Shown piece after piece: positions 1 through 41,331 of a DNA stretch of 52,019 bases. The notes under the pieces are model-generated. The model worked only from the letters and a program-made list of their open reading frames with translations, was not told the origin of the DNA and did not search any database. This DNA is from a virus (lineage: Duplodnaviria > Heunggongvirae > Uroviricota > Caudoviricetes): positions 1 to 52,019 of the IMG/VR virus record IMGVR_UViG_2724679140_000011, one strand, 5' to 3'. Made by a program: the position numbers and the translations under genes. The stretch's first letter is position 1, and every line of letters begins with the position of its first letter.

Positions 1-727
1 TTATCAGTTACAGGAAAACATAACCAGAGTATTCCGAAAAAGAGAATAATCAATAAAATATTGAAAATACATGGTGCCGGGTGCCTCCCGGTGAATTCTG
101 CAATGACCAGACAGAATCCGCTGCTTGCTACTCTCGCTAATGCAACCCAACCTGACGGTCATTATGCCCCGCCGCTGAGGGGGATTCACCATGCTGGGAC
201 TTTTTAACAAATTGCACTAAAATAACACAACGATTAATCGACAAAATCGTGATTGACTTAACATTTTATTTCTACCCGAAATTATCACTGATGTACTGCA
301 TTATCTTCTGAAAACTCTCAGCTTTCTGTTCAGCGCCCGTCGCACAACTCCCTGACGCCATAACAGCTTTTATGGCTGAGCCTGAACCAATGAAGAAATC
401 CGCTACCAGGTCCACTGAATGACTACCAGCACAAATTACGGATGTTTTTTCACAAGAATACTTACCCGGGTAAAATTGATCTGGCTTATTCGTCCACATA
501 TCAGTGTACGGTAATAACACTATCACACAAAAATACTGGCGCAGACCTTTATATTCACTAAGTCAGTCACTTCTGTGATACATACATGGCCTCGAGCCAG
601 TGGTGTGTTTTTCCCTTTTCTGGTTAACGTAACATACCAATAGCTCTTGTCTAAAAAGCCAGCAAGCTGAAAGACCGGTATTCGAAACCACCAGCGCGTT
701 TAACGTCCTGTGCCGCTTTTTGGGCGC

Positions 728-13562: not shown

Positions 13563-13772
13563 GTGGGGCTGGATTGCGTACCTATATCAACCTACTGCCG
13601 CAACGCGGGAGAAACGCTTGATGCCGTTAACAAACGGATACAAAGAGGAATATGGAAAGAAGGGGTACATGTATTAAAAGTCGACGGAGTTAAAGAACGT
13701 TGGGTCGACTTAATGGAGATTACAAAATGGGCAAGAAAGAACAAGGATCATTATCTCTCCCTAGAGGAGTAA
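13563..13772 (+). CDS. excisionase-like (Xis/AlpA-type) small DNA-binding protein
   Basis: 69-aa basic protein immediately upstream of and overlapping the integrase; GTG start with gaggtg SD. Confidence 0.45.
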   Translation: MGLDCVPISTYCRNAGETLDAVNKRIQRGIWKEGVHVLKVDGVKERWVDLMEITKWARKNKDHYLSLEE

Positions 13773-14905
13773 CTATTCGCCAGCATAAAACTGGCAGCAC
13801 CCTGGTTATCACTTTTACATATAAAGGGGTTCTGTGTCGGGAGCCCCTCTCCAGAATGGAAGCAAACGCGCGCGGTGTGAAGTACGCCGAGCGCCTGCTC
13901 GGGGAGATACAAAACCAGATCGTCAGTGGCACCTTTGAATATGCGAAATATTTCCCCAACTCCAAAAAGCTGGAGCTGTTCGGGGTGGTGAAGAAAACCA
14001 AAAACATAAAGTCCTACCTGGACGAGTACCTGAAAATCTGCCAGAACCGCAACCTGTCCCCGTCGACTATAAATGGTTATGAAAAATGCCTGTCGGCACT
14101 GTCAGCTCTGCATAAACTCCACGTGTCAGAACTGACGCCAGCGGTCCTTAAAAACTGGATAGCCAGCCGGAAAACAAAGCTGAAAACGACCAGGAATAAC
14201 CTTTCGTTTCTGCGCAGCGCCATTGATGAAGCTGTTACGGATGGCCTGCTGACCATTAACCCGGTAACCCTCGTCAGCGCCAGCCGGTACCACGTGATCG
14301 ACAGCAGCCCGAGCGCCGACGATTACGAGGTTGACCCGTTCACGCCAGCGGAGACCCTTGCCATTTACCAGAGCTGCAGGTACACGGAATGGGAAAACCT
14401 GTTCCGCTTTGCTTTCAATACAGGTCTGCGGAGCTCAGAACTGTGCGCGCTGCGCTGGGCTGATCTCGACACCATCGCGAACACAGCCCACGTTCAGGCG
14501 GCCAGTGTCGTAGGGATACTTAAAGGCACCAAGACAAAAGCCGGTACCCGTAAGGTGGAGCTGAACAGTGAGGCGCTGGCGGCCCTGCAGGCGCAGAAGC
14601 AATACACCTTTATGAAAAGTGAGTTCATATTCAGCGATCCGAAAACGGGAGAACCCTGGACGAACGCCGACGCTATCCGTAAAAAAGCATGGGTGCCGAC
14701 CCTGAAAAAAGCTGGTGTGCGCTACCGTAACCCGTACCAGACGCGCCACACATTCGCCACCAGACACATTAGCCAAGGTGTAAACCTTTTCTGGCTTGCC
14801 GGGCAGATGGGGCATAAGGGGCCGGAAATGCTGTTCCGCAATTACGGTAAATACCTGGCTGAATACGACGGGAAAACCGCAATGGAAGCTGGAATGAAGA
14901 AGTGA
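13700..14905 (+). CDS. tyrosine integrase, lambda-Int type (probable start 13727)
   Basis: C-terminal catalytic region with ...RHTFATRHISQGVNLFWLAGQMGHKGPEMLFRNYGKY (R...H..R..Y). Confidence 0.85.
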   Translation: MGRLNGDYKMGKKEQGSLSLPRGVTIRQHKTGSTLVITFTYKGVLCREPLSRMEANARGVKYAERLLGEIQNQIVSGTFEYAKYFPNSKKLELFGVVKKTKNIKSYLDEYLKICQNRNLSPSTINGYEKCLSALSALHKLHVSELTPAVLKNWIASRKTKLKTTRNNLSFLRSAIDEAVTDGLLTINPVTLVSASRYHVIDSSPSADDYEVDPFTPAETLAIYQSCRYTEWENLFRFAFNTGLRSSELCALRWADLDTIANTAHVQAASVVGILKGTKTKAGTRKVELNSEALAALQAQKQYTFMKSEFIFSDPKTGEPWTNADAIRKKAWVPTLKKAGVRYRNPYQTRHTFATRHISQGVNLFWLAGQMGHKGPEMLFRNYGKYLAEYDGKTAMEAGMKK

Positions 14906-14911
14906 TTTGAA

Positions 14912-14940
14912 GAAAAAACCCGGTAAATGCCGGGTCTGTT
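14912..14940. terminator. bidirectional rho-independent terminator
   Basis: acccgg-taaatg-ccgggt hairpin with A6 upstream and T-rich downstream, between convergent int and 14947..15714. Confidence 0.5.
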
Positions 14941-14946
14941 TGATGG

Positions 14947-15714
14947 TTATTCTGTCGCGCCACCTATCGAAACATAATCATGAAATTGATCGTCAATGAG
15001 TCGGTCCTTACAGATAACATGTACAATGTGACGACAACAGTTTTCATCATCATACGCACGACCCCAGCGAACAATCTCATCTACAGACAGATCATTCGCA
15101 CTCCATGGCAAAGTACCTGAAACACCACGCGCACCTGGACCAAGTATGTCCATAAATTTCTTCGTGCGTGAATTGTAGATCCGTACCTCGGCAATTCGAA
15201 TGATGCTACTGGCCCAAAGAGCACCACCGGCAATACTTTGAATGTTATCGCAGATGAGAAACTCATGCTTTCGCGCAAGCATTTTATAGATCTCACGCGC
15301 CAAACCTGCTGATTGGAAATCCTGTGCGATAACAGCGCTTTTCACTTGCTTTCCGGTCATCATCTGACCGTTCTCTTCGATAAAATTAAAGTCGTTGAAC
15401 TGTATACGACCTATTCTTATCGTTTTGTTATCGTCTACCATATCAAGACCCAAGAGGGTATTGACCAGATCCTGCATTGGAACCTTCGAATCAAGAAGGT
15501 CACTGCCATAGTCTAAAAAAAAGTCGTCGGTGGAACATCCCAGTTGATACACATCCAAGTAGTACTGAAACTCACCAGAACTGACAATGTACTCATCAGC
15601 CCTCAGTAAGCCAGCCTCGGCAGTGAAAAAATAGAATGACTCAATAAGACGTTTTTCGCCAAATGGCGTGATGTTCAAGTCCTTGTTATATGAAGGTATT
15701 AACGCAGGAGCCAT
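14947..15714 (-). CDS. hypothetical protein, 255 aa (cargo operon gene 2)
   Basis: 12 bp downstream of the 113-aa gene; lies between prophage integrase and the ssrA att copy. Confidence 0.6.
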   Translation of the reverse strand: MAPALIPSYNKDLNITPFGEKRLIESFYFFTAEAGLLRADEYIVSSGEFQYYLDVYQLGCSTDDFFLDYGSDLLDSKVPMQDLVNTLLGLDMVDDNKTIRIGRIQFNDFNFIEENGQMMTGKQVKSAVIAQDFQSAGLAREIYKMLARKHEFLICDNIQSIAGGALWASSIIRIAEVRIYNSRTKKFMDILGPGARGVSGTLPWSANDLSVDEIVRWGRAYDDENCCRHIVHVICKDRLIDDQFHDYVSIGGATE

Positions 15715-15725
15715 TCAGCAACCTT

Positions 15726-16067
15726 TTAATGGTAGTTAATTTCCCTGTAGTTCTTCTGCATGTATAGAGCAATTGCCGCTTCAATTTTCTTCAGCAGATT
15801 ACTGCTTACATACTGAGGATACTGATCTGCTGGCTTCACAACATAGCGCAATTTTTCTTTGTTCATGGCGATCTCAGCGAACGGGATCACGTCACCGTCA
15901 CGAACTTCATTGTTCAATGTCACAATAAACAGCTGACGTGCCGGGGAGACACGATCACTCAGTCTTCTCACGAAGAACTCGTTTGCTGTGTTTGAGTCAA
16001 CAAAAGAACTGACGAGTTGAGTCCGACGCTCAATCGTCTGTATCGATCTTCTCGCTACTGTTCTCAT
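15726..16067 (-). CDS. hypothetical protein, 113 aa (cargo operon gene 1)
   Basis: gaggagac SD before ATG; preceded by two strong palindromes. Confidence 0.6.
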   Translation of the reverse strand: MRTVARRSIQTIERRTQLVSSFVDSNTANEFFVRRLSDRVSPARQLFIVTLNNEVRDGDVIPFAEIAMNKEKLRYVVKPADQYPQYVSSNLLKKIEAAIALYMQKNYREINYH

Positions 16068-16544: not shown

Positions 16545-16600
16545 GATTATTGGTATACGTTTCGGTATACGGTAGGATGTATACCTAAAAGCGTATACCA
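16545..16600. promoter_or_regulatory. GGTATAC repeat cluster (2 direct + 2 inverted) upstream of integrase; candidate arm-type sites/operator
   Basis: ttggtatacg...ggtatac...gtatacc...cgtataccaa read directly. Confidence 0.4.
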
Positions 16601-16621: not shown

Positions 16622-17821
16622 GTGGCACGGACAACACGCCCCCTGACCAACACCGAAGTTCTGCGCGCGAAAGCGTTAGAGAAGGATCTAACGCTGCATG
16701 ATGGCGATGGGCTTTTCCTGATAGTGAAAACTAGCGGCAAGAAACTCTGGCGCTTTCGCTATCAACGCCCAGCAACAAAACAGCGGACTATGATGGGACT
16801 TGGTGCTTTTCCTGCCCTTTCTCTTGCTGATGCCCGAGGGTTAAGAGCAGATTACCTTGCCCTATTAGCCAACGGAATCGACCCGCAAATTCAAGCTGAA
16901 GTTGCAGAGGAACAGCAGCAAATCGCTCTGGACAGTATTTTTTCGACGGTCGCCGCTAACTGGTTCCAGCTCAAAAGCAAAAGCGTTACCCATGATTACG
17001 CTAAAGATATATGGCGTTCACTGGAAAAAGACGTATTCCCCACCATCGGGGAGATCCCTGTCCAGCAAATCAAAGCCCGAACACTGGTTGAAGCCCTTGA
17101 ACCGATCAAAGCTCGTGGGGCGCTGGAGACGGTGCGCCGGTTGGTGCAGCGTGTTAACGAGATAATGATTTATGCCGTAAATACTGGTCTTATTGATGCC
17201 AATCCAGCATCAGGCATTGGAATGGCCTTTGAGAAGCCAAAAAAACAAAATATGCCTACGTTGCGCCCAGAAGAATTGCCTATGCTGATGCGTTCTCTCG
17301 TCATGTCAAATTTGTCTGTTCCGACTCGCTGCCTCATTGAGTGGCAACTCCTGACTCTAGTTCGTCCTTCTGAGGCTTCCGGTGCTAGGTGGGCTGAGCT
17401 CGATCTCGATGCAAAGCTCTGGACTATCCCAGCTGAACGAATGAAGGCTAAGCGGGAACACATAGTCCCTCTATCTCCTCAGGCATTAGAGATTCTTGAT
17501 GTGATGAAGCTAATCAGTGCCCATCGTGAACATGTTTTCCCGAGTCGGAATGACCCAAAGCAACCAATGAATAGCCAGACGGCAAATGCTGCTTTAAAAA
17601 GGATTGGATTTGGTGGTAGATTGGTTGCTCATGGATTGCGTTCAATTGCCAGCACCGCATTAAATGAAGCGGGTTTTAATGCAGATGTAATTGAGGCTGC
17701 TCTTGCACATAGTGATAAAAATGAAGTGCGCAGAGCATATAATCGTTCAACTTACCTTGAGCAACGAATAGGACTTATGAATTGGTGGGGCCAAAAAGTG
17801 TACGAGCGCAATCAATATTAG
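16622..17821 (+). CDS. P4-type tyrosine integrase (CP4-57 IntA-like)
   Basis: N-terminus MARTTRPLT...DGDGLFLIVKTSGKKLWRFRY typical of P4/IntA-like integrases; adjacent to ssrA att copy. Confidence 0.9.
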   Translation: MARTTRPLTNTEVLRAKALEKDLTLHDGDGLFLIVKTSGKKLWRFRYQRPATKQRTMMGLGAFPALSLADARGLRADYLALLANGIDPQIQAEVAEEQQQIALDSIFSTVAANWFQLKSKSVTHDYAKDIWRSLEKDVFPTIGEIPVQQIKARTLVEALEPIKARGALETVRRLVQRVNEIMIYAVNTGLIDANPASGIGMAFEKPKKQNMPTLRPEELPMLMRSLVMSNLSVPTRCLIEWQLLTLVRPSEASGARWAELDLDAKLWTIPAERMKAKREHIVPLSPQALEILDVMKLISAHREHVFPSRNDPKQPMNSQTANAALKRIGFGGRLVAHGLRSIASTALNEAGFNADVIEAALAHSDKNEVRRAYNRSTYLEQRIGLMNWWGQKVYERNQY

Positions 17822-17850
17822 TTAACTTGTTATACATGGAGATATAGTTC

Positions 17851-18309
17851 ATGGAGAATAATCTAGATAATTTATGTTATGAATTCTTTAGAGAGTTTTC
17901 ACGTTATGAATATTGCCTTAAGGCATGTGGACTTCATCATAAAATAAAAGATGCTAAAGCGAACTGGGATGAGTATGCAAAGCAAGTTTCTGAAATCATA
18001 AATAACACAACTGATCCAGAGCTAATTGCTGCTATCACCTACTTTAAAGAACACCCACCCAAAAAACAAATCATAGAAGATGACTCTTTAGTTTGGGATG
18101 ATTCTTTACCACAAGAAAAAGATTTAGCAAAATTTCTTTTTTTGTTAATCCGCCGTGTAAGAAACAATCTTTTTCACGGAGGAAAATTTAACGGGAAATG
18201 GTTTGAACCTGAACGTAGTGAGGCGTTACTGCAACATGGCCTTGTTATTTTGAGGCATTGCGGCACAAGGCATAGTGAAGTAAGCAAAGCCTATTCTGGA
18301 ATAGCCTGA
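17851..18309 (+). CDS. hypothetical protein, 152 aa, AT-rich
   Basis: ORF in AT-rich cargo block, convergent with the helicase gene. Confidence 0.5.
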   Translation: MENNLDNLCYEFFREFSRYEYCLKACGLHHKIKDAKANWDEYAKQVSEIINNTTDPELIAAITYFKEHPPKKQIIEDDSLVWDDSLPQEKDLAKFLFLLIRRVRNNLFHGGKFNGKWFEPERSEALLQHGLVILRHCGTRHSEVSKAYSGIA

Positions 18310-18401
18310 GCGGTGTTATAAAAGAGAAGTTTTTGTTACTGGAAGAATGATAAAATTCAAAAACTTCTCTATTGATTGTTTAAAAAATCGTCTAAATAAG
18401 A

Positions 18402-20984
18402 CTATTGTACCCAAAAGTTACGAAATATATTATGTATTTCGTTTTGAACTAATTGTGGCAGTTCTTCCATGTCAACTTTATTGTCCTTAATCCAATTAAT
18501 GCATTCTTCCTCATCTAAACTATCATTAGGAATAAGCTCTGAAATCATTACAGCAGCAGTTCTTGAAAAGCCAAGCCCTATTAGTGAAATCTGAGTTTTT
18601 AAACTTACACCCAGTTCTAAATAAACACCGATATCTTCAACATCTTTTGCTAAGTCTGTGCGATCTATCGAAAGATAAAAGCTTTTTAATAAATCATTAT
18701 AACATCCTAAAAGCCTTGGAGCTTGATAGCGAGCGATCTCTTCAACATCCTTCATAACCCCTCGTATTAAAGTCGCTTCTTTGAAAACAATATTTTTCTT
18801 TTTGTTATATCTTATTCTATCCGAGATCAATCTTGCTAGGGGATAACCTTTCATCCACTTGGAAACTAACAAGGCCTGTACGTAAGCTCCTTTTGAATTA
18901 TAACCTAGCTTCTTACTCAGAGTATCACTAATTCTAGAGAATGCGGATACATATGAATCTAACGCATCATTACTACCAGGTTCAGAAAGCAGTAATCTCT
19001 CTACAGGTTTGTTTGTATCCCGCGAAAATCTATCCCAAAGGTTTTGCATTAAAAGCGGGCTTATACCAGGATGCCGCACAACCAATTCGTGTGGAAAAGT
19101 TAAAGAATCAAAAACATCAAATATTGCTTCATTTAAAACATCGATATTTTTTATATTGTACTTTTCCATGTAAGGATTATTATCCAAGCCATTATAAAAA
19201 TAAAATGATGAACATAAATAACTAAATAGACTCTGGAGATTAGGATTCCGCTCAGACATACCAAAATGATGCTCTGAAAAAATATAGGAAACCAACTTAT
19301 CCATGTCATGGGAAATAGCATCCGTGGCGCGAGTTATAAATATATTTTTTTTGGTTTTTGGAGGCTCTCCATTCCAAATTTTTTCATTGTCGCTATCGAT
19401 GCAGATGACATTACCTTGGAATTCTTTTCCCCAACGACCAGCTCTGCCAGCAAGATTCCAAAAATCCTCTTCTCGCATCGGGGTTGAATTACCCTTTTTA
19501 GGGCCTCTTATAAAAATATTTTTACAAGCCATGTTTACGCCCTCAACTAAAGTTGAGGTACAAATTAAAAAATCAATCTTACCTTTACTAAACAATCGTT
19601 CAATCTCGCCCTTTATTATTAAAGGCATGTTGCCATAATGAAAAGCGACTCTCTTTTTTAGAGTGCGATTTAATGCGAAATTTTTATGTATAATTGTCTC
19701 ACTAAGCTCAACGAGAGCTAAAATTTCTTCATCCTCAGTCTCATTTTCTATACTTGCAGATATTAGCTTGGAAGTAGATTCTGCTTCAGCGGCTCCATTT
19801 ACGTAAACTACGTTACCAGAAGCCCCCTTACCTAAACAAAGAGCTACAAAAGGCAATCTTTTACTTTCAGGAGATGGTGCATTTTCTAAAGAAAAGTTTC
19901 CTAACTCGCGTTTTTCACCGTTTGCAAAATAATACATCAACCAATCTTTGGTCTTGCGTGGTTTTTGTTCTACCCATATTAAATTTTGATTAACTGTAAC
20001 ATAGTCACTTTTTATAGTTCTTTTGTTTTTTAATATTGGAGCATCACTGAGCAATATTTCAGGATTTAAGGTGAAAGGACTTGCAAAGATAACTTTTGAA
20101 TCAGGGTTATTTAGACAAGTCAGTTCAATTACATGTTGAAGAATAACACCTCTTCCACCATCACCGATCTTGTGTGCTTCATCAACAACTAAGACGTCTA
20201 TCTTTGGAATTTGTGAGAAATGATTGTAGAATAAATTTAATCTTTCCTGTGTAAATATGAAGACATTAGATTTTTCGCTCTGGTATACATTACTCAATGG
20301 TAGTGTCTGAATATTAACTATATTTGTTAAATTAGGATCCAAACGTTTTTGCAACTCAGAATATACTTCTGAAATCAATGCCCTTGTTGGTACGATATAA
20401 ATAACTAAGCAATTCTTATTTCTTTTTACAAACTGCTCCACCCAAGATTCCAGGATAAATGATTTTCCTACAGAGGTAGGAGCAGAGACACTAACCCATG
20501 AGTTTTCTTGTACCGCATCCCAAAACTCTGATTGAAACCTATTAGCATAAATATGCTTATCAGCATCTATTTCAATTGTATATAGAATTTTTCTTTTAGT
20601 TAGTTCTAACTGAGCCTTTAAGGGTAATCTTTCTTCGAAATCAGGGTTAAGATACCCCCTATTTTCAGCAAGTTGTATTGCTGGATTATTAGATAATGAA
20701 TCAAGAATTAATGCAGCACTATCTTTTCTTGCTTCACTTTTTTCATTCAATAAGCAATACTGTGCAATCCTTAAGGCTGCATCTTGGCATTTCTCATCAC
20801 TTGAGAAAGCCAAAGAACTAGCACATGTTAAAAGATAGCCGACATCCTCAGAACTAATCTGTGGGATTACATCTGATTTTAACTCTGGAAATTGATCTTT
20901 TATCGAGTTAGCGACTAATGCCTGATATTTTCTTAAGAATCCTTGATTCTTAATCAACCACCCAGATAAATCTCGCAACGACAT
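18402..20984 (-). CDS. SF2 helicase, 860 aa (Hachiman HamB-like)
   Basis: Walker A APTSVGKS, DEAH box VVDEAH, motif VI LAGRAGRWG; start overlaps upstream gene stop. Confidence 0.8.
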   Translation of the reverse strand: MSLRDLSGWLIKNQGFLRKYQALVANSIKDQFPELKSDVIPQISSEDVGYLLTCASSLAFSSDEKCQDAALRIAQYCLLNEKSEARKDSAALILDSLSNNPAIQLAENRGYLNPDFEERLPLKAQLELTKRKILYTIEIDADKHIYANRFQSEFWDAVQENSWVSVSAPTSVGKSFILESWVEQFVKRNKNCLVIYIVPTRALISEVYSELQKRLDPNLTNIVNIQTLPLSNVYQSEKSNVFIFTQERLNLFYNHFSQIPKIDVLVVDEAHKIGDGGRGVILQHVIELTCLNNPDSKVIFASPFTLNPEILLSDAPILKNKRTIKSDYVTVNQNLIWVEQKPRKTKDWLMYYFANGEKRELGNFSLENAPSPESKRLPFVALCLGKGASGNVVYVNGAAEAESTSKLISASIENETEDEEILALVELSETIIHKNFALNRTLKKRVAFHYGNMPLIIKGEIERLFSKGKIDFLICTSTLVEGVNMACKNIFIRGPKKGNSTPMREEDFWNLAGRAGRWGKEFQGNVICIDSDNEKIWNGEPPKTKKNIFITRATDAISHDMDKLVSYIFSEHHFGMSERNPNLQSLFSYLCSSFYFYNGLDNNPYMEKYNIKNIDVLNEAIFDVFDSLTFPHELVVRHPGISPLLMQNLWDRFSRDTNKPVERLLLSEPGSNDALDSYVSAFSRISDTLSKKLGYNSKGAYVQALLVSKWMKGYPLARLISDRIRYNKKKNIVFKEATLIRGVMKDVEEIARYQAPRLLGCYNDLLKSFYLSIDRTDLAKDVEDIGVYLELGVSLKTQISLIGLGFSRTAAVMISELIPNDSLDEEECINWIKDNKVDMEELPQLVQNEIHNIFRNFWVQ

Positions 20985-20985
20985 T

Positions 20986-21927
20986 TCAACTCTCCAATGC
21001 TTTAATTAAACTAGCCCTAAATGCTTTTACTGAAGGAAAAGGAAGAATAAAAACATGCATAGCAAAGCGATCAAGTTTTTTATTAACTATACCACCTTGC
21101 ACACTAGTTGACCATTTCCCGACTTTAGTATTAATCAAAGCAACTAGTTCACTGATATCAATTGAACTGGGCCCTTGTGGATAATCTTTAAGATCAAACC
21201 CAACTAAGCATATTCCTCTGTATTCCAATTTATTAAAATCCGGGCTATCAGGATCTAAGAATCTTTTCAACGCTTGTTCTAGTTCTATATCATCAACATT
21301 TAAGTGCGACTCCAGCAACTGCATATCACGTGTCTCAGCGCCTTCTATTCCCATAGAACTTTGAAGTAATGGAGCTATACTATCCATACACTCAGAAATA
21401 CCTTTGCTCAGATTGGAATAGAGTTTAGACTCGCCCCAGTATAAACATAATTTTTTATTATCTTTATCTACGCCTATATGTATTCCATCTGCACCATGGT
21501 AATGCATTTGAGAACTCGTTTTCAGGCTCATTTTGCAAATAATTTGTGGAAATCTAAGGAATTGCTCTGCAAATAAAAAAAGAATAAATTCACCGCCTTC
21601 GCCACTATTTGCAAGCCTAGTAAATAATTTTTTTGCTTGATTTGCTAATTTTGTTATTTTCGCTGTTGATTGTGTTTCATTAAAATATTGCACTGCCTCA
21701 TTGATTTTTTTCCTTGGAATAGCATAATCAACTACTTTATCGTTCAAGAATTGGATTAACGCGTCTACCCGAGGACGTCCATTGCCATCAAGATTAAGGC
21801 AATGAAAATGACAAGTTGCATTTGTATTTTCAATCAATGAATTAACTTTAACTTCACTAAAATAACTATTTAGTGTTTGACCATCATCTCTAATCAGATT
21901 TTCAAGCGCGACATGCAGTGCATCCAT
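20986..21927 (-). CDS. putative PD-(D/E)xK-like nuclease partner, 313 aa (Hachiman HamA/DUF1837-like, tentative)
   Basis: Candidate D...ExK motif (GVDKD...WGESK); immediately upstream of and coupled to the helicase. Confidence 0.6.
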   Translation of the reverse strand: MDALHVALENLIRDDGQTLNSYFSEVKVNSLIENTNATCHFHCLNLDGNGRPRVDALIQFLNDKVVDYAIPRKKINEAVQYFNETQSTAKITKLANQAKKLFTRLANSGEGGEFILFLFAEQFLRFPQIICKMSLKTSSQMHYHGADGIHIGVDKDNKKLCLYWGESKLYSNLSKGISECMDSIAPLLQSSMGIEGAETRDMQLLESHLNVDDIELEQALKRFLDPDSPDFNKLEYRGICLVGFDLKDYPQGPSSIDISELVALINTKVGKWSTSVQGGIVNKKLDRFAMHVFILPFPSVKAFRASLIKALES

Positions 21928-22352: not shown

Positions 22353-22625
22353 TCAGACAGGAATTAGCTGACGGCTTGACAGCTTTGACGCGGAGCCATA
22401 GCGGTTGAGAGTTTGCTGTTGTTTTTCTGGCATTTGTTCTTTGTCTGATTCCTGTTCATTGCGCCAAGGCTTCATAATTATCGTATCCACGCTTTCCAGA
22501 GCGGTAAATGTGCAGGAACATTCCAGATTCTGGCACTGATACCATGAGCGTTTAACCGATGGAGCTTCATAGGCGCTGGTTCTGGCGTGAGCGACCGTCC
22601 CACATTCAGGACACTTCAGGGCCAT
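22353..22625 (-). CDS. Ogr/Delta-family zinc-finger late transcription activator
   Basis: MALKCPECG...HARTS...YQCQNLECSCTF matches the Ogr/Delta CxxC...CxxC pattern; perfect aaggagg SD before this ATG. Confidence 0.8.
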   Translation of the reverse strand: MALKCPECGTVAHARTSAYEAPSVKRSWYQCQNLECSCTFTALESVDTIIMKPWRNEQESDKEQMPEKQQQTLNRYGSASKLSSRQLIPV

Positions 22626-22626
22626 A

Positions 22627-23181
22627 TCAGTACCCTCCTTTTTCATTAAGTCGGTTAAGGCGGGCCAGGAAAACTTTATGTTGTGCCGGGGTGAAACTGG
22701 TTGAAGCATCAGCGTACATTGATGCATCCACCGTTAATCCGGTTTCGTCGATAATGCTCTTGTATGCTGCTGAAATTACCGGAGTACGCACTTCCGTTTG
22801 TCGGGCTACAGCGGTTCGTAATATTTTCATTGCCGCCTCAAGCCCGTATGGAGCGCAAAGAAAAGGAGCCAGTGCGTCAGTGAGTGCATCACCATGCTCG
22901 CTCATGAAGTTTTCCGTTGCGCTTGTAACACAACTCTCCAGCACAATCTGGTGAGCATAAAGACCATCCCGTGCAGCACAGTTAATCTGCCATTCGAGGA
23001 CAGCAAGACGCTCACGAAGCTCCTCAAGCTGGCTGGCATATGCTGCCGGTTTTTCTTCAGTATTCAGCAGAGCCGCCAGACGAAGCTGGTAGGTACTTTG
23101 CGTATTACGTAGTGTCAGCCAGCTTTTTATCGCCGAGCGGTAATCGTTGAGAGCTTCCTGAGTAATGGTTCCGGCATTCAT
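22627..23181 (-). CDS. psu: Psu-like polarity suppression / capsid decoration protein
   Basis: 184 aa; HG.AL..ALAP and C-terminal FTPAQ..F segments resemble P4 Psu as recalled; adjacent to delta. Confidence 0.6.
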   Translation of the reverse strand: MNAGTITQEALNDYRSAIKSWLTLRNTQSTYQLRLAALLNTEEKPAAYASQLEELRERLAVLEWQINCAARDGLYAHQIVLESCVTSATENFMSEHGDALTDALAPFLCAPYGLEAAMKILRTAVARQTEVRTPVISAAYKSIIDETGLTVDASMYADASTSFTPAQHKVFLARLNRLNEKGGY

Positions 23182-23963
23182 TTCTTCTCGCCCCCTTTAA
23201 CCATGTCACGCTGTTTAAGCATCCGTGAACGCGCTGCAGGGCTGGGGGATTGTCTGGCATCCTGGATGGCTTTATCGTCCGCATAAATGCTGATCCCCGG
23301 CAGGGTAATATCATCCGTTGAAGATACGTTACAGGACAGTACCGGAGTGGTGAGTTGCTCGCTGATAAATTGCTTCAGCACACTTTCGGGGTCGTTTACG
23401 GTATGAACTACACCGATAACAGCAGAAGCGCTTCGGCCCAGAGTCATTTTCAACAGTCCAAGGATCTGAATAAGTTTCTGGCCGTGTTCCTTCATAAACT
23501 CATTCCAGAGCCACACTGCATGAGTTTCAATCAGGCGATTATGTTCGCTGATGTAGTGGTTTGCAGCATCCGCAGTTTTCCAGGGCAGGAATTCATTTTC
23601 TGCCACCTGAGCTGCCAGCAAATCTTCGAACTCATCCAGTGTTTCGCGTCCGAGGGCGATTTCTGCCCGCAGTTTTTTCATGCGTGGTGTCATATTTCCC
23701 TGATTCTCACGAAACAGGTTTCGCCATTCATCATTAAGCGCCTGCGTTTCCGTTTTTGTATCTTCCTGACGTTTACGGATAGTTTCAATCATTGCAGCAG
23801 CTTCAGTTTGTTTTCGCCGTTCTTCCTGCCAGACAGCTTTTGCTGCCTTAACTTTTTCCACCGCTTCGCGAATTTTCGGCGGGAGGGAGGATGTAATGTT
23901 TGCATCAGAGATCTGGTTAACAGTAGTCATGAATGCTCCGGTAGTGTTTTGTTGTCGTGTCAA
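23178..23963 (-). CDS. Sid-like coiled-coil protein (size-determination scaffold), tentative
   Basis: 261 aa, charged coiled-coil-like central region; first gene of the sid/psu/delta-type operon. Confidence 0.4.
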   Translation of the reverse strand: MTRQQNTTGAFMTTVNQISDANITSSLPPKIREAVEKVKAAKAVWQEERRKQTEAAAMIETIRKRQEDTKTETQALNDEWRNLFRENQGNMTPRMKKLRAEIALGRETLDEFEDLLAAQVAENEFLPWKTADAANHYISEHNRLIETHAVWLWNEFMKEHGQKLIQILGLLKMTLGRSASAVIGVVHTVNDPESVLKQFISEQLTTPVLSCNVSSTDDITLPGISIYADDKAIQDARQSPSPAARSRMLKQRDMVKGGEKK

Positions 23964-24843: not shown

Positions 24844-25104
24844 ATGCATGATATTTCTGTTTCTGCGCCAGCTCCGGCTGCGCCATTATTTCCTGTGCTG
24901 AACCAGCATGAGCGATTTTTACGTCTTCCCGAGGTGATGCATTTATGCGGCTTGTCCCGCTCAACTATATACGACCTGATAAGCCGCGATGCTTTCCCGA
25001 AGCAGATCCCGCTTGGTGGTAAAAATGTTGCCTGGGCACAGTCAGAGGTAAGCGCATGGATGGCGGATCGTATAAGTGCCCGCGGACGGGGATGTGATGC
25101 ATAA
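24844..25104 (+). CDS. AlpA/Vis-family small DNA-binding regulator
   Basis: [48 protein letters not shown] is an AlpA-type HTH. Confidence 0.7.
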
Positions 25105-25655
25105 TGATGCCTGAACGCATTAATCCCCATTTTTCTGGCTTGCATCCTGCAGTCATTTCCAGGTATAGTTTTTCCGCTGCCGCAAAATCGGCAGCCGGAA
25201 TTGGCGTTCCGCGAAACTCAATGGCGACACCAGACGCGCCAAGCGTCTTTTTTTTCGTCGAAGCTCTGGCACACCCATTTTCCAGGCTGTGGTGTTTATG
25301 CGTACACCGTGGTTCTTTCGAGATAATGGCAGTCCGGGCGGGGCAGCCTTCGGGCTGGCCGGTATCCATTGAGGCCGGTTACGCCAACCCCGTTCGGGCT
25401 GCCACCAGTGAAATTGGCGTTTCCGGTGGTAGCAATAACCGCTACTCAATGGAGGCTGCCATCATGGCTACAACCCTCACCCCGTTTTACCCGCAATATG
25501 TCTTTGTGCTTGCCGCAATCCGCCGTGCTGACACTCAACCCCGCATCTGTATGCTTCGCACCGTGGCCTGCGATGAGCGCTTTGCACGCCTTTCGCTGGT
25601 CCGTGATTATGTGCTCTCCCTTTCTGCACGGCTGCCTGCCGGGGAGGTGATGTGA
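25104..25655 (+). CDS. hypothetical protein (P4 early region; start uncertain)
   Basis: ORF in GC-rich region; several overlapping frames, weak call. Confidence 0.3.
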
Positions 25656-25879: not shown

Positions 25880-26199
25880 AATCACGCACTCTTCCCCTCT
25901 CACTTCGGCTGGCGTTATATCGCCGCGCGGTTGCCTGCGCCTGGCTGAGTATCTGCCATCAGCACAACCGCCACCTGCAGCTCACTCTGGATGAAATTGA
26001 AACCGCCATTGCCCGTGAGCTTGAAGGTTTTTATCTGCGACAGCACGGGCAAACAAAAGGCATGGAAATCGCCTGCGCCCTGCTTTCAGACCTGATGGAA
26101 TCCGGTCCTCTAATGTCCTGCCCCGCACTCTCCCAGCTCGGAATAGCCGTAATGGATGAGTTATGCGTCCGTCACATTATAAAGCCGGTTTTACACTGA
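25876..26199 (+). CDS. hypothetical small protein
   Basis: Start overlaps upstream stop; precedes alpha. Confidence 0.35.
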
Positions 26200-28547
26200 G
26201 GGAGAACTGCATCATGTCAGGAATGAAAGTCAGTCAGGCCGTGAAGGCTGCCCGCGGTCACTGGGCGCGGATTTTGCCAGCGCTGGGTATGAACATACTG
26301 AAAAATCGCCATCAGCCTTGTCCGGTCTGCGCCGGTAAAGATCGTTTTCGCTTCGACGATCTGGAAGGACGTGGAACATGGTTCTGCAACCAGTGCGGGG
26401 CTGGGGACGGTTTAGCGCTTGTCAGCAAGGTACTGAATGTGGATATCAGTGAAGCAGCAGACAGGATACATGGACTGACACATAGTCTGTCTTCAGCCTC
26501 TTCTGGAGTCTGGACGTCAACCGCAGATACAGATGGCGGGAAACAGGCGGCAGCAGCACTTGCCGCGCGACTACTGCAAGCCTCGCGTGAATCTGCCGGA
26601 AATACTTATCTTACACATAAAGGTTTCCCGGAGCATATTTGCCATGAGCTGACTTCAGGTCATAAAACCGGTGGGGTGATGTTCCACCCCGGTGATTTGA
26701 TCGTCCCGCTCTATAACGCTGACGGGGAACTGGTGAATATTCAGCTTATCAGTGGCAATGGTAGCAAGTGTTTTCTTAAAGGAGGTCAGGTTAAGGAGGC
26801 CTATCATCTGATAGAAGGGGGCGGGAGTTCTGTAAGAAGGATGTGGATTGCGGAAGGTTACGCCACGGCGCTTACCATTCGTCATCTGACAGGAGAAGCC
26901 GTCATGGTGGCATTTTCGTCGGTCAACTTTCTTTCTCTGGCCAGCGTTGCCCATAACAAGTATCCGGGATATCAGTTAATTATTGCAGCGGACCGCGATC
27001 TGAATGGTTCAGGCCAGAACAGGGCTGAAACTGCTGCAAAAGCGTGTCAGTGTGACATTGTGCTGCCACCGGTTTTTGGTGACTGGAATGATGCGCTTAC
27101 CCAATACGGAGAGGAATCCACCCGGAAGGCAATTCTTGAGGCTTTGAAGCCACATAACGCCAGTCCTTTCGACACAATGAGTGAAGCAGAATTCACAGCG
27201 ATGAGTGTCAGCGAAAAAGCTCAGAGGGTTCGGGAGCATTACAGGGATGCACTGGCGGTTGATCCGAACGGGCAGCTTTTATCCCGCTACGAGTCTGGAG
27301 CGTGGAAAGTGATTTCTCAGTCAGATTTTGCCCGAGATGTCGCAGCCCTTTTCCAGCGCCTCGGTGCACCGTTTTCCTCAGGAAAAATTGCTTCACTGGT
27401 GGAAACATTAAAGTTAATTGTTCCGCAGCAGCAAAATCCGGCACGTCATCTGATCGGTTTTCGTAATGGCGTCCTCGATACGCGAACAGGGCTGTTTAGT
27501 CCGCACTGTAAAGAGAACTGGCTGCGTACCCTGTGTGAAGTCGATTTCACGCCACCGGTAGAGGGGGAAACGCTTGAAACTCATGCCCCGGCATTCTGGC
27601 GCTGGCTGGACCGGGCTGCCGGACACAAGCCAGAAAAACGCGACATTATTCTTGCGGCGTTATTTATGGTGCTGGCGAATCGCTATGACTGGCAGCTCTT
27701 TCTGGAAGTGACTGGCCCTGGTGGAAGTGGCAAAAGTATTCTGGCTGAAATTGCGACCATGCTTGCTGGAGAGGATAACGCCACCTCTGCGACCATTGAA
27801 ACGCTGGAGTCCCCGCGAGAACGTGCGGCTCTGATAGGTTTTTCTCTTATTCGCCTGCCTGATCAGGAGAAGTGGAGCGGCGACGGCGCCGGGCTTAAGG
27901 CTATAACTGGTGGCGATGCGGTATCGGTGGACCCCAAATATCAGAATGCTTATTCAACACATATTCCGGCGGTTATCCTGGCCGTAAATAATAATCCTAT
28001 GCGCTTCACTGATCGCAGTGGTGGTGTGTCCCGCAGGAGAGTTATTCTGCATTTTCCTGAGCAGATAGCACCGGAAGAACGCGATCCGCAGCTGAAAGAT
28101 AAAATTGCACGAGAACTGGCTGTGATTGTTCGCCAGCTCATGCAGCGTTTCAGCGATCCGATGAGCGCCAGAACATTGCTTCAGTCGCAGCAGAATTCTG
28201 ATGAGGCTCTCACCATCAAGCGTGATGCTGATCCAGCATTTGATTTTTGTGGCTATCTTGAGGCATTACCTGACACCAACGGCATGTTTATGGGGAACGC
28301 CAATATTGTCCCACGCCAGCCACGTACCTACCTTTACCATGCCTACCTCGTATACATGGAGGCTAATGGATATAAAAACACCCTGAGTCTTACGATGTTT
28401 GGCAAAGGGTTGCCAGTCATGCTGAAGGAGTACGGGCTACATTATGAGAAACGGCGAACTAATCAGGGAATGCAGACTAACCTCACTTTAAAAGAGGAAA
28501 GTAATGCAGACTGGCTACCCAAGTGCGATGAGCCAACAATCAAATAA
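26163..28547 (+). CDS. P4 alpha-like primase-helicase (zinc ribbon + TOPRIM + D5-type helicase); probable start 26214
   Basis: [53 protein letters not shown], Walker A GPGGSGKS. Confidence 0.85.
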
Positions 28548-28764: not shown

Positions 28765-28790
28765 CCCGCTATTGGTATACGCTTAGGTAT
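28765..28790. promoter_or_regulatory. GGTATAC direct repeats near right end of the P4-like element (candidate arm-type sites)
   Basis: ttggtatacgcttaggtatac, same 7-mer as at 16545-16600. Confidence 0.3.
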
Positions 28791-28846
28791 ACAAACAAAA
28801 ACAACTTAAATAAATAACCAATTAAAACATAGATATAACATACAAA

Positions 28847-32940: not shown

Positions 32941-33199
32941 TAAGATCAAAAAAACTTTCAGGCAGCTAAGGAAAGTTGAACCAGACATTAGAATAAATAT
33001 TTCAACCAATTACAGCACCAATTCAGACACCGCCAGCTCAACAAATAAATCAAGGGGTTACGTGAAAGCGTAGCCCCTTTTTCTTTGGTAGTGGCAGCAA
33101 AATGGTTGTAGTGTAAAAAATAATCCCGTTTAATCAATCAATAATACATATTGTTTCAATCTACGTTATTATCTCTTTGTAAAAATAGCCATTTATTAA

Positions 33200-33943
33200 T
33201 CATTGAAAACTGCTTTTAGAACTTGATACAACGGGACTAGTCACAACAGGACTATTCTCAACGGGATCATCCTCAGAGGAACTATCATCAAAGTCATCAT
33301 CCATAAATAAAATATCATCGAATGGTGCCACGCCCGTGATGAGTTTTATTTTATTATTACGATCAGTCAAGACTCCACTTAAACCGTTTTCGCTCACAGG
33401 TTTTAATGATTTTTCATTACTCTTGTTGTAAGCAGGCGCATTAAAAATACACGGAGTATCAAGATCAAACAATGACGTTCCCCAGTTCACATATTGAATA
33501 TCATAGTTACTGAAGTTCTGTCCAGAAAAGAAGCATCCCTTAAAATCCAATCCACCTAAATTATATAAACCATCCTCTTCTTTTTGGAGAGTAATGTTAA
33601 TTTTGGCTATCTCCCGGACATCATCGCCATTTTTATATTTGAATACCGTTTCAAGATTTTCCCCACACAGTTTGACTTCTGGAAATAATTTGAAATCAAA
33701 GCCTATATTATTATGTATCAACGTAGATGAACAAAAGATGGAGAAAGCTTGCAGTGCTGAATTATAGCTTTCGATTTTATCCTGAGGCTGCGCTCTTGGT
33801 AAAAACTCATAGCAACATTCATAAAAATTAAGTAGAAACTCTGAAGACCTTCCATTTTTATCAAATAATATCCCCTTGAACTCATTCACAAACGCATCTT
33901 TTTTTTCTTGAATATCTATGGGGTGTTCCTTTGACTCTGACAA
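33200..33943 (-). CDS. hypothetical protein, 247 aa, AT-rich, acidic/Ser-rich C-terminal tail
   Basis: Downstream gene of a two-gene AT-rich operon. Confidence 0.5.
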   Translation of the reverse strand: MSESKEHPIDIQEKKDAFVNEFKGILFDKNGRSSEFLLNFYECCYEFLPRAQPQDKIESYNSALQAFSIFCSSTLIHNNIGFDFKLFPEVKLCGENLETVFKYKNGDDVREIAKINITLQKEEDGLYNLGGLDFKGCFFSGQNFSNYDIQYVNWGTSLFDLDTPCIFNAPAYNKSNEKSLKPVSENGLSGVLTDRNNKIKLITGVAPFDDILFMDDDFDDSSSEDDPVENSPVVTSPVVSSSKSSFQ

Positions 33944-33957
33944 AGATGAAATCTCAT

Positions 33958-34572
33958 CTATTTTTTTTCATATGAATTACGTGATTCCATACAGACATTT
34001 GGCGGCGTTTCTAAAATAACACTACGCGTACTACTTGGCTTAAGTAAACCAACATGAAAATCACTTTTTCTTATATTATCGAAAAGGTTCTGTTCATTTC
34101 TTTTAACGCATTCAAAAAACTGATCGTCATTATTTTTATTCGATAATTTTTTAGTTTCAGAAAACACATTTTCATTGTTTTCCAGCTTTAGTTTAATGAG
34201 AAGATTTTCCCAGACCTGCTTGCTTAAACATATTACGTCAGGCTCACCAGAACTAACTAACTCGTGATTATTATTAAAGTGTACGTTGAATACCTTTAAG
34301 TTATTTTCACCAACTTCATATTTAATACGTTTTAATTGTTCTCCAACTCCCATAATGACAAAGGCGTTGCCTTCATGATATATACATTCAGACATCATTT
34401 TTTGTAAAGTTTCAAGAGCACCGCGATACGTCTCTGATGCAGCTTCCTTACAAATTAATTTTAAAATACTATGAGCTAGTAGCTCCATGTGTTTAGAAGA
34501 TTTATTTTCATTATAACTTCCACTACCCAAAACTGCGCTAGCGTTAAATCCGTTGCTTTTACTAACTAACAT
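33958..34572 (-). CDS. hypothetical protein, 204 aa, AT-rich
   Basis: Upstream gene of the operon; 14-bp gap to the next gene. Confidence 0.5.
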   Translation of the reverse strand: MLVSKSNGFNASAVLGSGSYNENKSSKHMELLAHSILKLICKEAASETYRGALETLQKMMSECIYHEGNAFVIMGVGEQLKRIKYEVGENNLKVFNVHFNNNHELVSSGEPDVICLSKQVWENLLIKLKLENNENVFSETKKLSNKNNDDQFFECVKRNEQNLFDNIRKSDFHVGLLKPSSTRSVILETPPNVCMESRNSYEKK

Positions 34573-35321
34573 TGTCTATTCCTCAATTAATGTCTACATG
34601 GCTATTTTTAATGTTATTACTGTTTGTCACTATAAAAAAACGCTCATTTGAGAAAATTACTGATATTAACTGCTTCACTTGCTACGCATGGAACTTTTAA
34701 TTAAATTAGCACAGGAATGTTAAATTTAATAAACAAAAGGTTATTTCGCTGTATGATAAAAAAACCGTTATAATTTATTAGTGAAAATCGTTTTTCAAGT
34801 GTTAGAAATTTATATCTCAATAGCGTTGGTTAATGAGCATAGCCACGCTCCTGTAACGCTCACAAAACTCATCTGCCTGCGGCGGGTGTTCTGGTCAGTA
34901 GTAGATGTTTAAGGCGTGGCAGAGACATTTCATCCTTACTCTACGGCATTGTTCTACATACATTGGTTGTGGTACTCACTCATCATCAGTGAGCGAACAG
35001 AGAATAGTTCAGTGATTTGAGTAATTAACCTGATTAAATTAAGGGGTATAATAAATGATAATACTCTGGCTTTATCGTTAATTACTTAATTCCACATGTA
35101 AGCAATTTGCCCGCTTGGCATAGCAGGCATTTTTTCCAGGTACTTTTGAATGAGTACTGATGGATAAATACATTGCAGTGGCGTGCCACGTACCAAAACA
35201 CCAGCCCTCATTCGAAACCACCCACCGCACTTCTTCCTTGAAATGGCGTTAGTCATGAAATATAGACCGCCATCGAGTACCCCTTGTACCCTTAACTCTT
35301 CCTGATACGTAAATAATGATT

Positions 35322-37689: not shown

Positions 37690-39294
37690 TTACTGTTCGA
37701 CCAGACATTTTCCCCATAAAGGTCGTATCGAGTATCTATCTTCGCTATATGGATTTATTTTATTTTTTTCCCTCTGTGCTATCAGCAACGTGTCGATCTC
37801 ATCCTTAATAATGTGTTGAACTGCTTGACGGTAACGGTTAAGCGAAGTGTCACTGATATCTTGTGGAAGTTGTAGACTGCTATCTGCCTTGACGAGTTCA
37901 TTCACACCATCTTTAATTTTGCGTCCCTGACCATCAGGTATACCTTCATTCAGATCATAGCCTTTCAGTCCTGCAAGACGAATATTCACGTCAATCTTTT
38001 CTGTACGTTTCTTTTTGTTACTTACCAACAGAATTTTATTGGCGTTATACCATTTTTCAAATGTTTCCAGTTGTTTCATGATGTTTGTGAAGTTATTCAG
38101 TTCGCTCCTGAATTCAATAGATTTTCTAATTTCACGCTCTTTTGCATCAATGTTTATTCCTGGATAATTTATTTCCCTTTTTAACGGTTCTATGTATGCC
38201 TGTTGCAGGCAACCAGCAAGATTCATTGCTGCATCCTGCAGGGTATTGGTATAAATCAGTTTCAGAAGTTCATCGCGCTGTATAGTGATTTGACAATAGT
38301 CTTTTTCCCATGCGGTGGTGTTTTCAATCGTGTCACTTTCATCGGAAATAATTGTTGTGAATTTCCAGGTGTAACGAATAAAATCATTTCCTTTAAAATA
38401 TTGCACTAATTTATTTAACCATTCATATATTTCCAGAGCATAAAGTTTAACGTATCCATCATATATTATCTTTGTTGCATTTTTGTTGGCTAGCGAAAAC
38501 ATTTTGTCCACGAATTCTGTACGCCCGATTGTTAGCAATTGTTTTCTAAGTTTACTCACATCGTTAGTATCTGGTTTCTCACAATTCCAGGGACTTTTGT
38601 ATTCATTTTCAAAAGGAGAAAGCCATTCAGGAATCTCTGTTTTTGAGTGATAGCAGTTGTTAATAGCCAAACCAAGGGTTCTGGCAAGTATCGCTGATTC
38701 ATCAATTTGATGGTATCGGTTCAGTTGTTCCAGTAATTCTTTAGTACATGAGTGCGCAACAGAAAGATCCTGATGGCAATATCCTTGTCGAACCAGAGCG
38801 GGAAGTGGTGAGCAATGAGCTTTACAATCTGTCAGAATATTGAACAAATCGTTTCTGACGAATTCTTCCATCTCAGGTGTTTTCCAGCCACCACTATTTT
38901 GGCCGACAAATTTTGCTGTTGGTTCCCTGTTCATATCTCCCCAGGTTTTCAGGCTGACGAGTCTGTTATCAAAACCATTGTATAAATGGCACATAACCTG
39001 AAAAGCAGCATACAGCTCTTTAGATAGTGGATTATCGGTCTCACCTATGGAGTAGTCCTCTCTATTTTGCTCTAAAATATTTTGTAGTTTTGTGTTAGCG
39101 CGTAATGCCGAGAGAATCCGATGTTGTTCATCAAACCAGGGACGATATTCTGGATCCAGATACAATCTGCGTGCTTTGAAAATGAGTAGAAGCAACTGTT
39201 CGGAAACAGCTTCATGTATGTGGGGAAACGGCATGGAGGTGCCAGATAAAACACGATAGTACGGGTGGTTTGTTTTTACCTTTTTAGTTACCAT
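37690..39294 (-). CDS. hypothetical protein, 534 aa, AT-rich orphan gene
   Basis: Long ORF in AT-rich DNA with no recognisable motif; integrase-proximal position. Confidence 0.65.
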   Translation of the reverse strand: MVTKKVKTNHPYYRVLSGTSMPFPHIHEAVSEQLLLLIFKARRLYLDPEYRPWFDEQHRILSALRANTKLQNILEQNREDYSIGETDNPLSKELYAAFQVMCHLYNGFDNRLVSLKTWGDMNREPTAKFVGQNSGGWKTPEMEEFVRNDLFNILTDCKAHCSPLPALVRQGYCHQDLSVAHSCTKELLEQLNRYHQIDESAILARTLGLAINNCYHSKTEIPEWLSPFENEYKSPWNCEKPDTNDVSKLRKQLLTIGRTEFVDKMFSLANKNATKIIYDGYVKLYALEIYEWLNKLVQYFKGNDFIRYTWKFTTIISDESDTIENTTAWEKDYCQITIQRDELLKLIYTNTLQDAAMNLAGCLQQAYIEPLKREINYPGINIDAKEREIRKSIEFRSELNNFTNIMKQLETFEKWYNANKILLVSNKKKRTEKIDVNIRLAGLKGYDLNEGIPDGQGRKIKDGVNELVKADSSLQLPQDISDTSLNRYRQAVQHIIKDEIDTLLIAQREKNKINPYSEDRYSIRPLWGKCLVEQ

Positions 39295-40073
39295 AATGTT
39301 AAATTCTTCCGTCTATTGCATAGCTGTTTCCTGTAGAGAAACTTGATACAGTCCTTTGTCAGGACATTGATACAGAGTTAACAGCCTCTACGAAATGGGA
39401 ATCAGTTATGCAGTGGCATTATACGATGCTGAATCTAATACGATATCCTTAGCGTTTATTCCTGATTTTTTTACGAGCATTCCCTTTTGTTGCATATTGC
39501 TCAGGACGTAAATGATTTTACGGTTATAGCCCTCTACAGTCACGTCACTTTCATCTGAAAATATGTATCGTTTTCATTCAATTATTATCTTTTGTCTGCA
39601 CTTTAGCTTTAGCAAGTTGGCAAAAATCAACTCCCTCTTACAAGTTCTATTATCGCTAGAAGATAATTTTGTGAACTTCGTCACGTTTTCAAACTAATGT
39701 TGTGGGGGCTTTTCTGGGGAAAATTTTTGGTCACTACCCCTCCTCTTGATATCATAGATCATAACAAGATTTTTTTTGTTTTTGTCTGCATAAAATAACC
39801 TACGAAGATTATGATTTTGGTTTTTATTTTGTATATTAAAAAGTATTGTTTGAATTATTTTTATATTGTGACTTTCTTTGTTGTTATTGTGTTATAAGAA
39901 GTCAGTTAATTAAATCAATTCTCGCAATTTGATTTCTTTGTTGTGCAAATGTATTGTTTTGCTCGTGAGTTGCTGGTGCTGTTCAGCAGCATACCACTAC
40001 AGATAGATGTAGTGATTTGAGCAGCTCACATGCATATACAATCTGAAAATCATGAATGTATAAGGAGAGCAAT

Positions 40074-40301
40074 ATGTGGAAGCCGTTAAGAGATGAGAAC
40101 CGTTTATCAATTTTGAAGATCTATGGATACACCTGTGACAGACTGGTACGAGAAGAGGAACGTCAGAACATTACGTCTATTTCTCGTTCACAAGCCTGGA
40201 AACTGGAACGTGAAGGAAAATTCCCGCCACGTAAAACTATTGGAAAGAAATCCTGTGGATGGTTATTAAGTGATCTATTGTGGTGGATTAGTCAGTATTA
40301 A
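40074..40301 (+). CDS. AlpA-family DNA-binding regulator
   Basis: aaggag SD then ATG; ISRSQAWKLEREGKFPPRKTIGKKSCGWLLSDLLWWI resembles the AlpA HTH. Confidence 0.6.
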   Translation: MWKPLRDENRLSILKIYGYTCDRLVREEERQNITSISRSQAWKLEREGKFPPRKTIGKKSCGWLLSDLLWWISQY

Positions 40302-40363
40302 CCTTATAGTATCAGAATAATATATATTTCTATATTTTAATTTTATAATTAAAAAGGAGTTTC

Positions 40364-41110: not shown

Positions 41111-41331
41111 TTATGGCCCGCGTAGATTTATTCATAACCCAGAAATCGTGGTGTAAATGATGAACAGAAACCGCTTTCTGAGGTTAAAGAGAGCAATCAT
41201 TACCCGGGAGTGGCCAACTCTTTTATCGAGTACTTTTCCGATGTATCTGGAGAGTCTCCCTTAGAAAAGAGTAATGCGACTCAGGAAAAAACAGGTTCAA
41301 TAATTAATTCATGACACCAGTTTGAGGCATT

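Follow-up and report, generated by a model that had tools for sequence, protein, structure and literature searches.

The window analysed here (the whole stretch of viral DNA, 52,019 nt; IMG/VR record IMGVR_UViG_2724679140_000011) carries an open reading frame of 152 codons, ORF152, at 17851..18309 on the + strand. It begins with ATG and is predicted to encode a stand-alone HEPN-like protein of 152 aa (RefSeq WP_016809720.1; PHROG 19013, phrog_19013). A GGAG ribosome-binding site, read from the sequence, is located 9 nt before the ATG (17838..17841, + strand). The stop codon of the upstream integrase gene lies 29 nt from the ORF152 start, and a consensus promoter scan returned 0 sigma-70-like sites near ORF152. 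Because of this short gap and the negative promoter scan, ORF152 is probably transcribed together with int. The spacing between int and the ORF152 orthologue is 32 nt in one related locus (L096) and 7 nt in another (L107). Downstream, ORF152 and the convergent hamB gene are separated by a gap of 92 nt, inside which an AT-rich inverted repeat with 16-nt arms and a 22-nt spacer is found (18320..18373). The repeat departs from the GC-rich terminator consensus, and the terminator consensus scan around ORF152 was negative; judged from its sequence and placement, it may act as a bidirectional terminator ending both transcripts. No RNA family was detected at or near ORF152 in an Rfam scan.

The integrase (16622..17821, + strand) is a P4-type tyrosine recombinase with the Pfam domains Arm-DNA-bind_3, Phage_int_M and Phage_integrase, and it forms the left border of a defence hotspot. 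On the other side of ORF152, on the − strand, are the genes of a Hachiman system: HamB, a DEAD helicase of 860 aa (18402..20984; PADLOC HamB1, full length, E = 0), and HamA, a DUF1837 protein of 313 aa (20986..21927; Pfam HamA 2.9e-61; PADLOC HamA1 9.5e-136). The right border of the hotspot consists of the delta, psu and sid-like genes (22353..23963, − strand), with Ogr/Delta (Ogr_Delta) at 22353–22727, Psu at 22627–23181 and a Psu-like Sid at 23178–23963. Beyond them lie an Ash-family protein (25104–25655), the isrK and C4 antisense RNA of the P4 immunity region (25176–25409; Rfam) and a P4 alpha-type primase-helicase (26163–28547). A fragment of ssrA is present left of the integrase, at attL, and a 23-nt direct repeat, 91% identical between its copies (16548–16570 and 28770–28792), brackets about 12.2 kb. 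The P4 core genes, the ssrA fragment and the bracketing repeat together identify the element as a P4-like satellite of about 12 kb inserted at ssrA.

In a survey of thousands of elements, the main defence hotspot of P4-like satellites was located between int and psu-delta-sid (PMC13586616). It is this interval that ORF152 and HamAB fill, and ORF152 is thus cargo in the defence hotspot of a P4-like satellite. Related integrases of other E. coli (83–88% nucleotide identity) cease to align at about 17790–17800, close to where int ends and short of ORF152; ORF152 therefore belongs to the variable cargo and not to the integrase module. A role as integrase accessory or excisionase was rejected, since the alignments of int relatives stop upstream, family members occur widely in settings other than integrase loci, and no HTH is seen in the structural model. 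The GC content of ORF152 (0.359) is as low as that of HamB (0.346) and HamA (0.348), compared with 0.484 in the integrase gene and 0.49 in delta-sid. A preliminary description of this DNA had placed a 152-aa frame at 17851–18309, between the integrase and a nuclease-helicase operon, on the strand opposite to that pair and in a shared AT-rich block; strand, position and composition all hold, and the pair is HamA/HamB.

Copies of the satellite that are identical and carry the same annotation occur in E. coli D3 and in strain 190, adjoined by different tandem prophages. The satellite lies in tandem with another prophage, which varies among strains and is P2-like in D3. The HamA gene of D3 (L001, 23136–23819, corresponding to 20986–21927 of the window) seems to be disrupted: its annotated product is a shortened 'HamA C-terminal domain' protein, and its tblastn alignment falls into two pieces. 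In strains AH04, AH02 and CT01, an IS5-like element underlies the alignment to the Hachiman region.

ORF152 is a real gene, conserved and subject to purifying selection. In a collection of 5.8 billion proteins, 696 homologues were found at E ≤ 1e-3 (best 1e-100), and a profile search with the family retrieved 2019 cluster representatives (clusters at 50% identity), almost without exception stand-alone proteins of 150–170 aa. The exact protein is present on at least 1000 public contigs of E. coli, Klebsiella and Salmonella, and dN/dS against 91%-identical orthologues is 0.18–0.19. The label 'unknown function' given earlier is accurate as far as curated libraries are concerned. ORF152 has no match in Pfam or NCBIfam, and its sole PADLOC matches, to Cas8c (E 0.009 and 0.023), were set aside as noise. 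The PHROG entry phrog_19013 matches it over the full length (1e-93) but likewise carries the annotation 'unknown function'. None of the three E. coli accession numbers of the protein was mentioned in the literature searched, where no report of a defence phenotype or RNase activity was found either.

The alignment of the family contains an invariant block, RxRNNLFHGGKFNG, and an N-terminal FxRxExxLK. HEPN domains are characterized by an R-x4-6-H motif in which a polar residue (N, D or H) comes right after the arginine (Anantharaman et al., PMC3710099), and in many families by an acidic residue upstream of the active-site motif, typically as E-x3-[KR], placed in core helix 2 (PMC3710099). Both elements are recognizable in ORF152. 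The R-x4-H motif R104-N-N-L-F-H109 is encoded at 18160..18177 (+ strand) and has the polar N105 after R104, while E20-Y-C-L-K24, encoded at 17908..17922 (+ strand), fits E-x3-[KR]. Across 141 sequences, representatives of 50% clusters, conservation was 100% for R104, 99% for N105, 98% for H109, 99% for E20 and 97% for K24. In the AlphaFold2 model of ORF152 (pLDDT 91.6, pTM 0.87), a long N-terminal helix is seen; E20-x3-K24 lies in the first long helix, as against core helix 2 in the published scheme, and R104–H109 covers the end of helix 92–107 and the start of the following loop, a helix-end position that agrees with the published description of HEPN (PMC3710099). Two family-specific beta-hairpin insertions, 72–83 and 111–118, flank the R-x4-H motif. 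Weak fold similarity was seen to 1wwp, to the HEPN toxins 8xdj, 7ae2 and 5yep, and to Cas13b, HI0074, AbiA and AF0298. The exact protein also bears the automatic UniRef name 'Apea-like HEPN domain-containing protein'. On the strength of the motifs, their placement and the weak fold similarity, ORF152 is likely to belong to the HEPN superfamily.

In the remote-homology comparison that the preliminary description had proposed, no curated model recognized the protein, and HEPN motifs and weak fold similarity came to light. Sequence and profile comparisons with Pfam, NCBIfam, PADLOC and PDB gave no homology to an established HEPN family; the PDB searches returned nothing relevant, and Pfam HEPN_Apea gave a marginal value of 0.044 in one of 25 homologues when all alignment members were scanned at E ≤ 10. 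Foldseek of the model against PDB and BFVD produced no significant match. These negative results, together with two beta-hairpin insertions that minimal HEPN proteins do not have, speak for a different reading, in which ORF152 is no functional HEPN RNase but a novel small helical protein whose R-x4-H-like motif serves nucleotide or ligand binding, regulation or anti-defence. This reading is considered improbable.

Among known proteins, the closest in shape to ORF152 are the minimal HepT toxins of HEPN-MNT (HepT-MntA) pairs (PDB 5yep, 7ae2/7ae8, 8xdj, 1wwp and 1jog), and going by the model ORF152 may work like them. No sequence or profile similarity to HepT is detectable, and ORF152 differs by its two beta-hairpin insertions and long N-terminal helix. 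In contrast to HEPN-MNT pairs, no MNT nucleotidyltransferase antitoxin is adjacent to ORF152, whose neighbours are the integrase and the convergent hamB; nor was a conserved small partner found in 78 loci of the family.

ApeA is reportedly, from the work of Gao et al. in 2020, a single-gene defence. As presented in a recent preprint, it is a tRNA anticodon nuclease of about 580 aa whose N-terminal and Mid domains supply a ligand pocket and underpin its assembly into doughnut-shaped decamers or dodecamers (bioRxiv 10.64898/2026.01.26.701840). ORF152 would share with it the logic of a single-gene, antitoxin-free HEPN protein, and it has an insertion after helix 3, as the HEPN domain of ApeA has insertions between H3 and H4. 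Unlike ApeA, it comprises 152 aa and has neither an N-terminal nor a Mid domain. Because it is far shorter, has none of these ApeA domains, and matches neither the PADLOC ApeA model nor Pfam HEPN_Apea, ORF152 is not an ApeA. The lactococcal Abi proteins of the HEPN class (AbiD/F, AbiU2, AbiV and AbiJ; PMC3710099) resemble it as predicted stand-alone HEPN effectors on mobile elements, and one member of the ORF152 family lies directly downstream of an AbiJ_NTD4 protein. ORF152 is shorter than these, has no N-terminal sensor domain and matches none of their models. To Hachiman its likeness is one of neighbourhood, the same hotspot and the same low GC; it is not homologous to any Ham protein. A 2026 study of P2/P4 hotspots validated Crouga, Bandua, Aernus, Toga, Reve and Hailong as new systems (PMC13586616), none of which fits a HEPN protein of 152 aa.

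Outside the satellite, members of the family were found in a variety of settings. P2-like prophages of 12 E. coli genomes have, between their tail-fibre assembly and tail sheath genes (the Z/fun locus), a member with 55% identity, which is convergent with an unannotated gene of 241 aa. A near-identical pair of such a member and the 241-aa gene directly follows the P4-type alpha primase in Mangrovibacter. The member of 150 aa and the 241-aa gene, sometimes joined by a 269-aa gene, make up a travelling module of near-identical copies (L084, 8981–11330, in E. coli NZ_AP022409; also L090–L093, L006 and L007). Neither the 241-aa nor the 269-aa protein has a PADLOC match, and the former is also without a Pfam match. 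Six E. coli genomes have a small integrase island adjoining ffs whose last gene is a 150-aa member (nucleotide identity about 69%). A DUF2188 gene (PADLOC candidate PDC-S16) precedes family members by about 200 nt in Phytobacter (L003, 9550–9795) and in L083 (8569–8796), the latter being the E. coli integrase island by ffs. A 29%-identical relative resides in the tail module of the E. coli phage vB_EcoM-683R1. In this myovirus the relative (L002, 7926–8438) and two other small hypothetical genes are lodged between the genes for tail and baseplate, a moron-like position.

A further setting is an operon with a short prokaryotic Argonaute. In four complete Rhodobacterales/alphaproteobacterial loci (L029, 7146–10453; L032, 5811–9051; L040, 7213–10453; L043, 7213–10453), a gene of the ORF152 family is the third gene after a REase(DREN)-APAZ gene and a short pAgo gene; a fifth locus, L028, is partial and ends at the contig end. 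The first protein corresponds to PADLOC Aga_REase-PNTD1-PNTD2 (1e-177), the second to pAgo_I (8e-170), and the family gene overlaps the pAgo stop codon (translational overlap). This arrangement suggests a three-gene variant of a SPARDA-like system, which is normally described as two genes. Other immediate neighbours of family members include AbiJ_NTD4/PDC-S32, HATPase_c_3 with Hypoth_Ymh, HNH, HsdR, AAA ATPases, IrrE-type regulators, integrases and resolvases. In rare fusions, an ORF152-type domain follows an Mrr_cat nuclease domain. Ordinary metabolic and housekeeping genes are also numerous among the neighbours, and the enrichment in defence contexts is qualitative and drawn without a control. 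The family is a mobile single-gene module, often but not exclusively found in defence and mobile-element contexts.

The relation of ORF152 to Hachiman was examined from both sides. In the forward direction, 80 loci from 80 different species, each encoding a member of the ORF152 family and drawn from alpha-, beta- and gammaproteobacteria, Binatia, Acidobacteriota and others, were searched for HamA and HamB within ±10 kb (tblastn 1e-5, phmmer 1e-3); neither was found in any of the 80. Viral loci of the family, other than copies of this element, likewise had no HamA or HamB. Clustering of the ORFs within ±5 kb at about 78 loci revealed no conserved neighbour, the largest neighbour family being present in five of them. 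The reverse comparison started from HamA. Among its metagenomic relatives are those of three P4-like satellites (L110–L112), whose HamA and HamB are 62–71% identical and whose integrase is about 84% identical to those of the window; in all three, the HamB stop lies 32–57 nt from the integrase stop with no gene between. A fourth locus (L114; HamB 47%) is also devoid of an ORF152-type gene. Thus, Hachiman exists in sister satellites without ORF152.

Within one satellite lineage, the picture is different. In orthologous satellites of Raoultella/Klebsiella and Enterobacter, the order int-ORF152-HamB-HamA is kept, with identities of 91% for ORF152, 97% for HamB, 98% for HamA and 96% for Int. A metagenomic contig retains the same order at 67% for ORF152, 83% for HamB and 91.5% for Int. 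The Enterobacter satellite (L101–L104, Enterobacter and metagenome contigs) is in decay, with a frameshifted, split int and no remaining psu, sid or alpha, yet ORF152-HamB-HamA is intact; the cargo has outlived its vehicle. The dS values are alike for ORF152, HamB, HamA and Int (0.20–0.37), and the four genes were therefore inherited together. The dN/dS of ORF152 is about 3-fold higher than that of HamB (0.06), HamA (0.03) and Int (0.06). In complete E. coli genomes, the same 19 carry ORF152 and this HamAB, with all copies at least 99% identical; they represent one clonal element, so this co-occurrence is uninformative on function and was discarded as evidence of coupling.

From the lasting order, its survival in the decayed Enterobacter satellite, the matching low GC and shared dS of ORF152 and HamAB, and the ability of the family to be recruited as third gene of another defence operon (short pAgo), it could be argued that ORF152 is a lineage-specific accessory of Hachiman, an extra RNase effector or modulator acting with HamAB in this satellite. 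Such a role is quite unlikely. The integrase diverges along with the trio, so vertical descent of one element accounts for the synteny; HamAB occurs without ORF152 in sister satellites, and the Ham genes are missing from all 80 family loci elsewhere. ORF152 is convergent with the ham operon and not part of it, no PADLOC Ham model matches it, and its dN/dS is about three times that of HamA or HamB. No homology to HamA, HamB or HamC and no regular co-occurrence with Hachiman was found. These results support the conclusion that ORF152 travels independently of Hachiman and that the linkage of the trio is confined to a single satellite lineage.

Of the two possibilities raised by the preliminary description, an independent cargo gene is therefore supported by the 80 Hachiman-free species loci and by the sister satellites, and the co-occurrence comparison it had suggested came out as independence in all 80 species loci. 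The other, an accessory or regulator of the neighbouring system, finds no support as a general rule, and what is left of it is the syntenic trio of one satellite lineage down to 67% identity. The outcome that it had named as telling against a link, a gene mostly independent of the pair and belonging to an unrelated family, essentially describes the present case, the family probably being part of the HEPN superfamily, recognized by motifs and weak fold similarity and not by a curated model.

Persistence of ORF152 in decayed elements, and carriage of the family by mobile elements of diverse kinds (P2, P4, integrase islands and the tail module of a Mu-like phage), would also be expected of a HEPN-type toxin serving maintenance or competition of the element rather than defence, either as an addiction module or as a weapon against helpers or competitors. 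In the addiction version, an unrecognized antitoxin could be a small RNA, a peptide or the integrase transcript. No MNT gene or conserved partner is adjacent to ORF152, in the window or across the 78 loci, no Rfam family is found near it, and the positions of the family are known defence hotspots. A maintenance toxin is therefore considered unlikely.

Taking these lines together, the reading that we favour, by a slight balance of probability, is that ORF152 is self-contained hotspot cargo, a minimal stand-alone HEPN protein and a candidate abortive-infection effector. In the scheme envisaged, ORF152 would dimerize like other HEPN domains, by analogy with these, and two R-x4-H motifs would create a composite metal-independent RNase site. 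The beta-hairpins 72–83 and 111–118 beside the motif might act as a gate or in substrate binding. We infer that the protein would be held latent in uninfected cells. Because no antitoxin-like partner is present, regulation would have to be intrinsic, with the two beta-hairpins as candidates, at the level of expression, or through a phage trigger. Upon phage infection, host or phage RNA (tRNA or mRNA) would be cleaved, resulting in protection of the abortive-infection type to the benefit of satellite and host. The mechanism is modelled on what has been described for HEPN proteins and ApeA (PMC3710099; bioRxiv 10.64898/2026.01.26.701840). An argument against it is that a constitutively active HEPN RNase without antitoxin would be toxic, and the protein poses the question of how a putative RNase of 152 aa, with neither antitoxin nor sensor domain, stays silent and is then triggered.

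In a broader version of this proposal, ORF152 would represent a widespread 'mini-HEPN' family without antitoxin, comprising about 2000 50% clusters and forming a new single-gene anti-phage system which moves between P4 and P2 hotspots and also serves as third effector in REase-APAZ/short-pAgo (SPARDA-like) operons. This we regard as possible but doubtful. ORF152 is best regarded as representing a new, uncharacterized family of a kind already known, namely HEPN effectors that stand alone in mobile defence hotspots. It is a plausible candidate anti-phage gene, and not a surprising one, as automated databases already label it HEPN-like. In the P4 hotspot, most previously uncharacterized genes prove antiviral, and six of eight unknown P4 loci gave protection (PMC13586616). 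If functional, ORF152 would be among the smallest stand-alone HEPN defence effectors, and its occurrence in many clinical Enterobacteriaceae (at least 1000 contigs) would add to the background of phage resistance that is relevant to phage therapy. The picture of Hachiman is unchanged, as Hachiman does not need ORF152.

Several features were noted elsewhere in the window. Left of the satellite (region 13700–16067), another integrase, which differs in type (Arm-DNA-bind_2), is encoded at 13700–14905; after it, just left of the ssrA-derived attachment site, come two ORFs on the − strand (255 and 113 aa) that have no Pfam or PADLOC match. An STnc100 sRNA match lies at the left end of the window (16–224). 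More AT-rich blocks (GC 0.34–0.37) are present at about 33000–35000 and 38000–42000, and may represent further horizontally acquired cargo.
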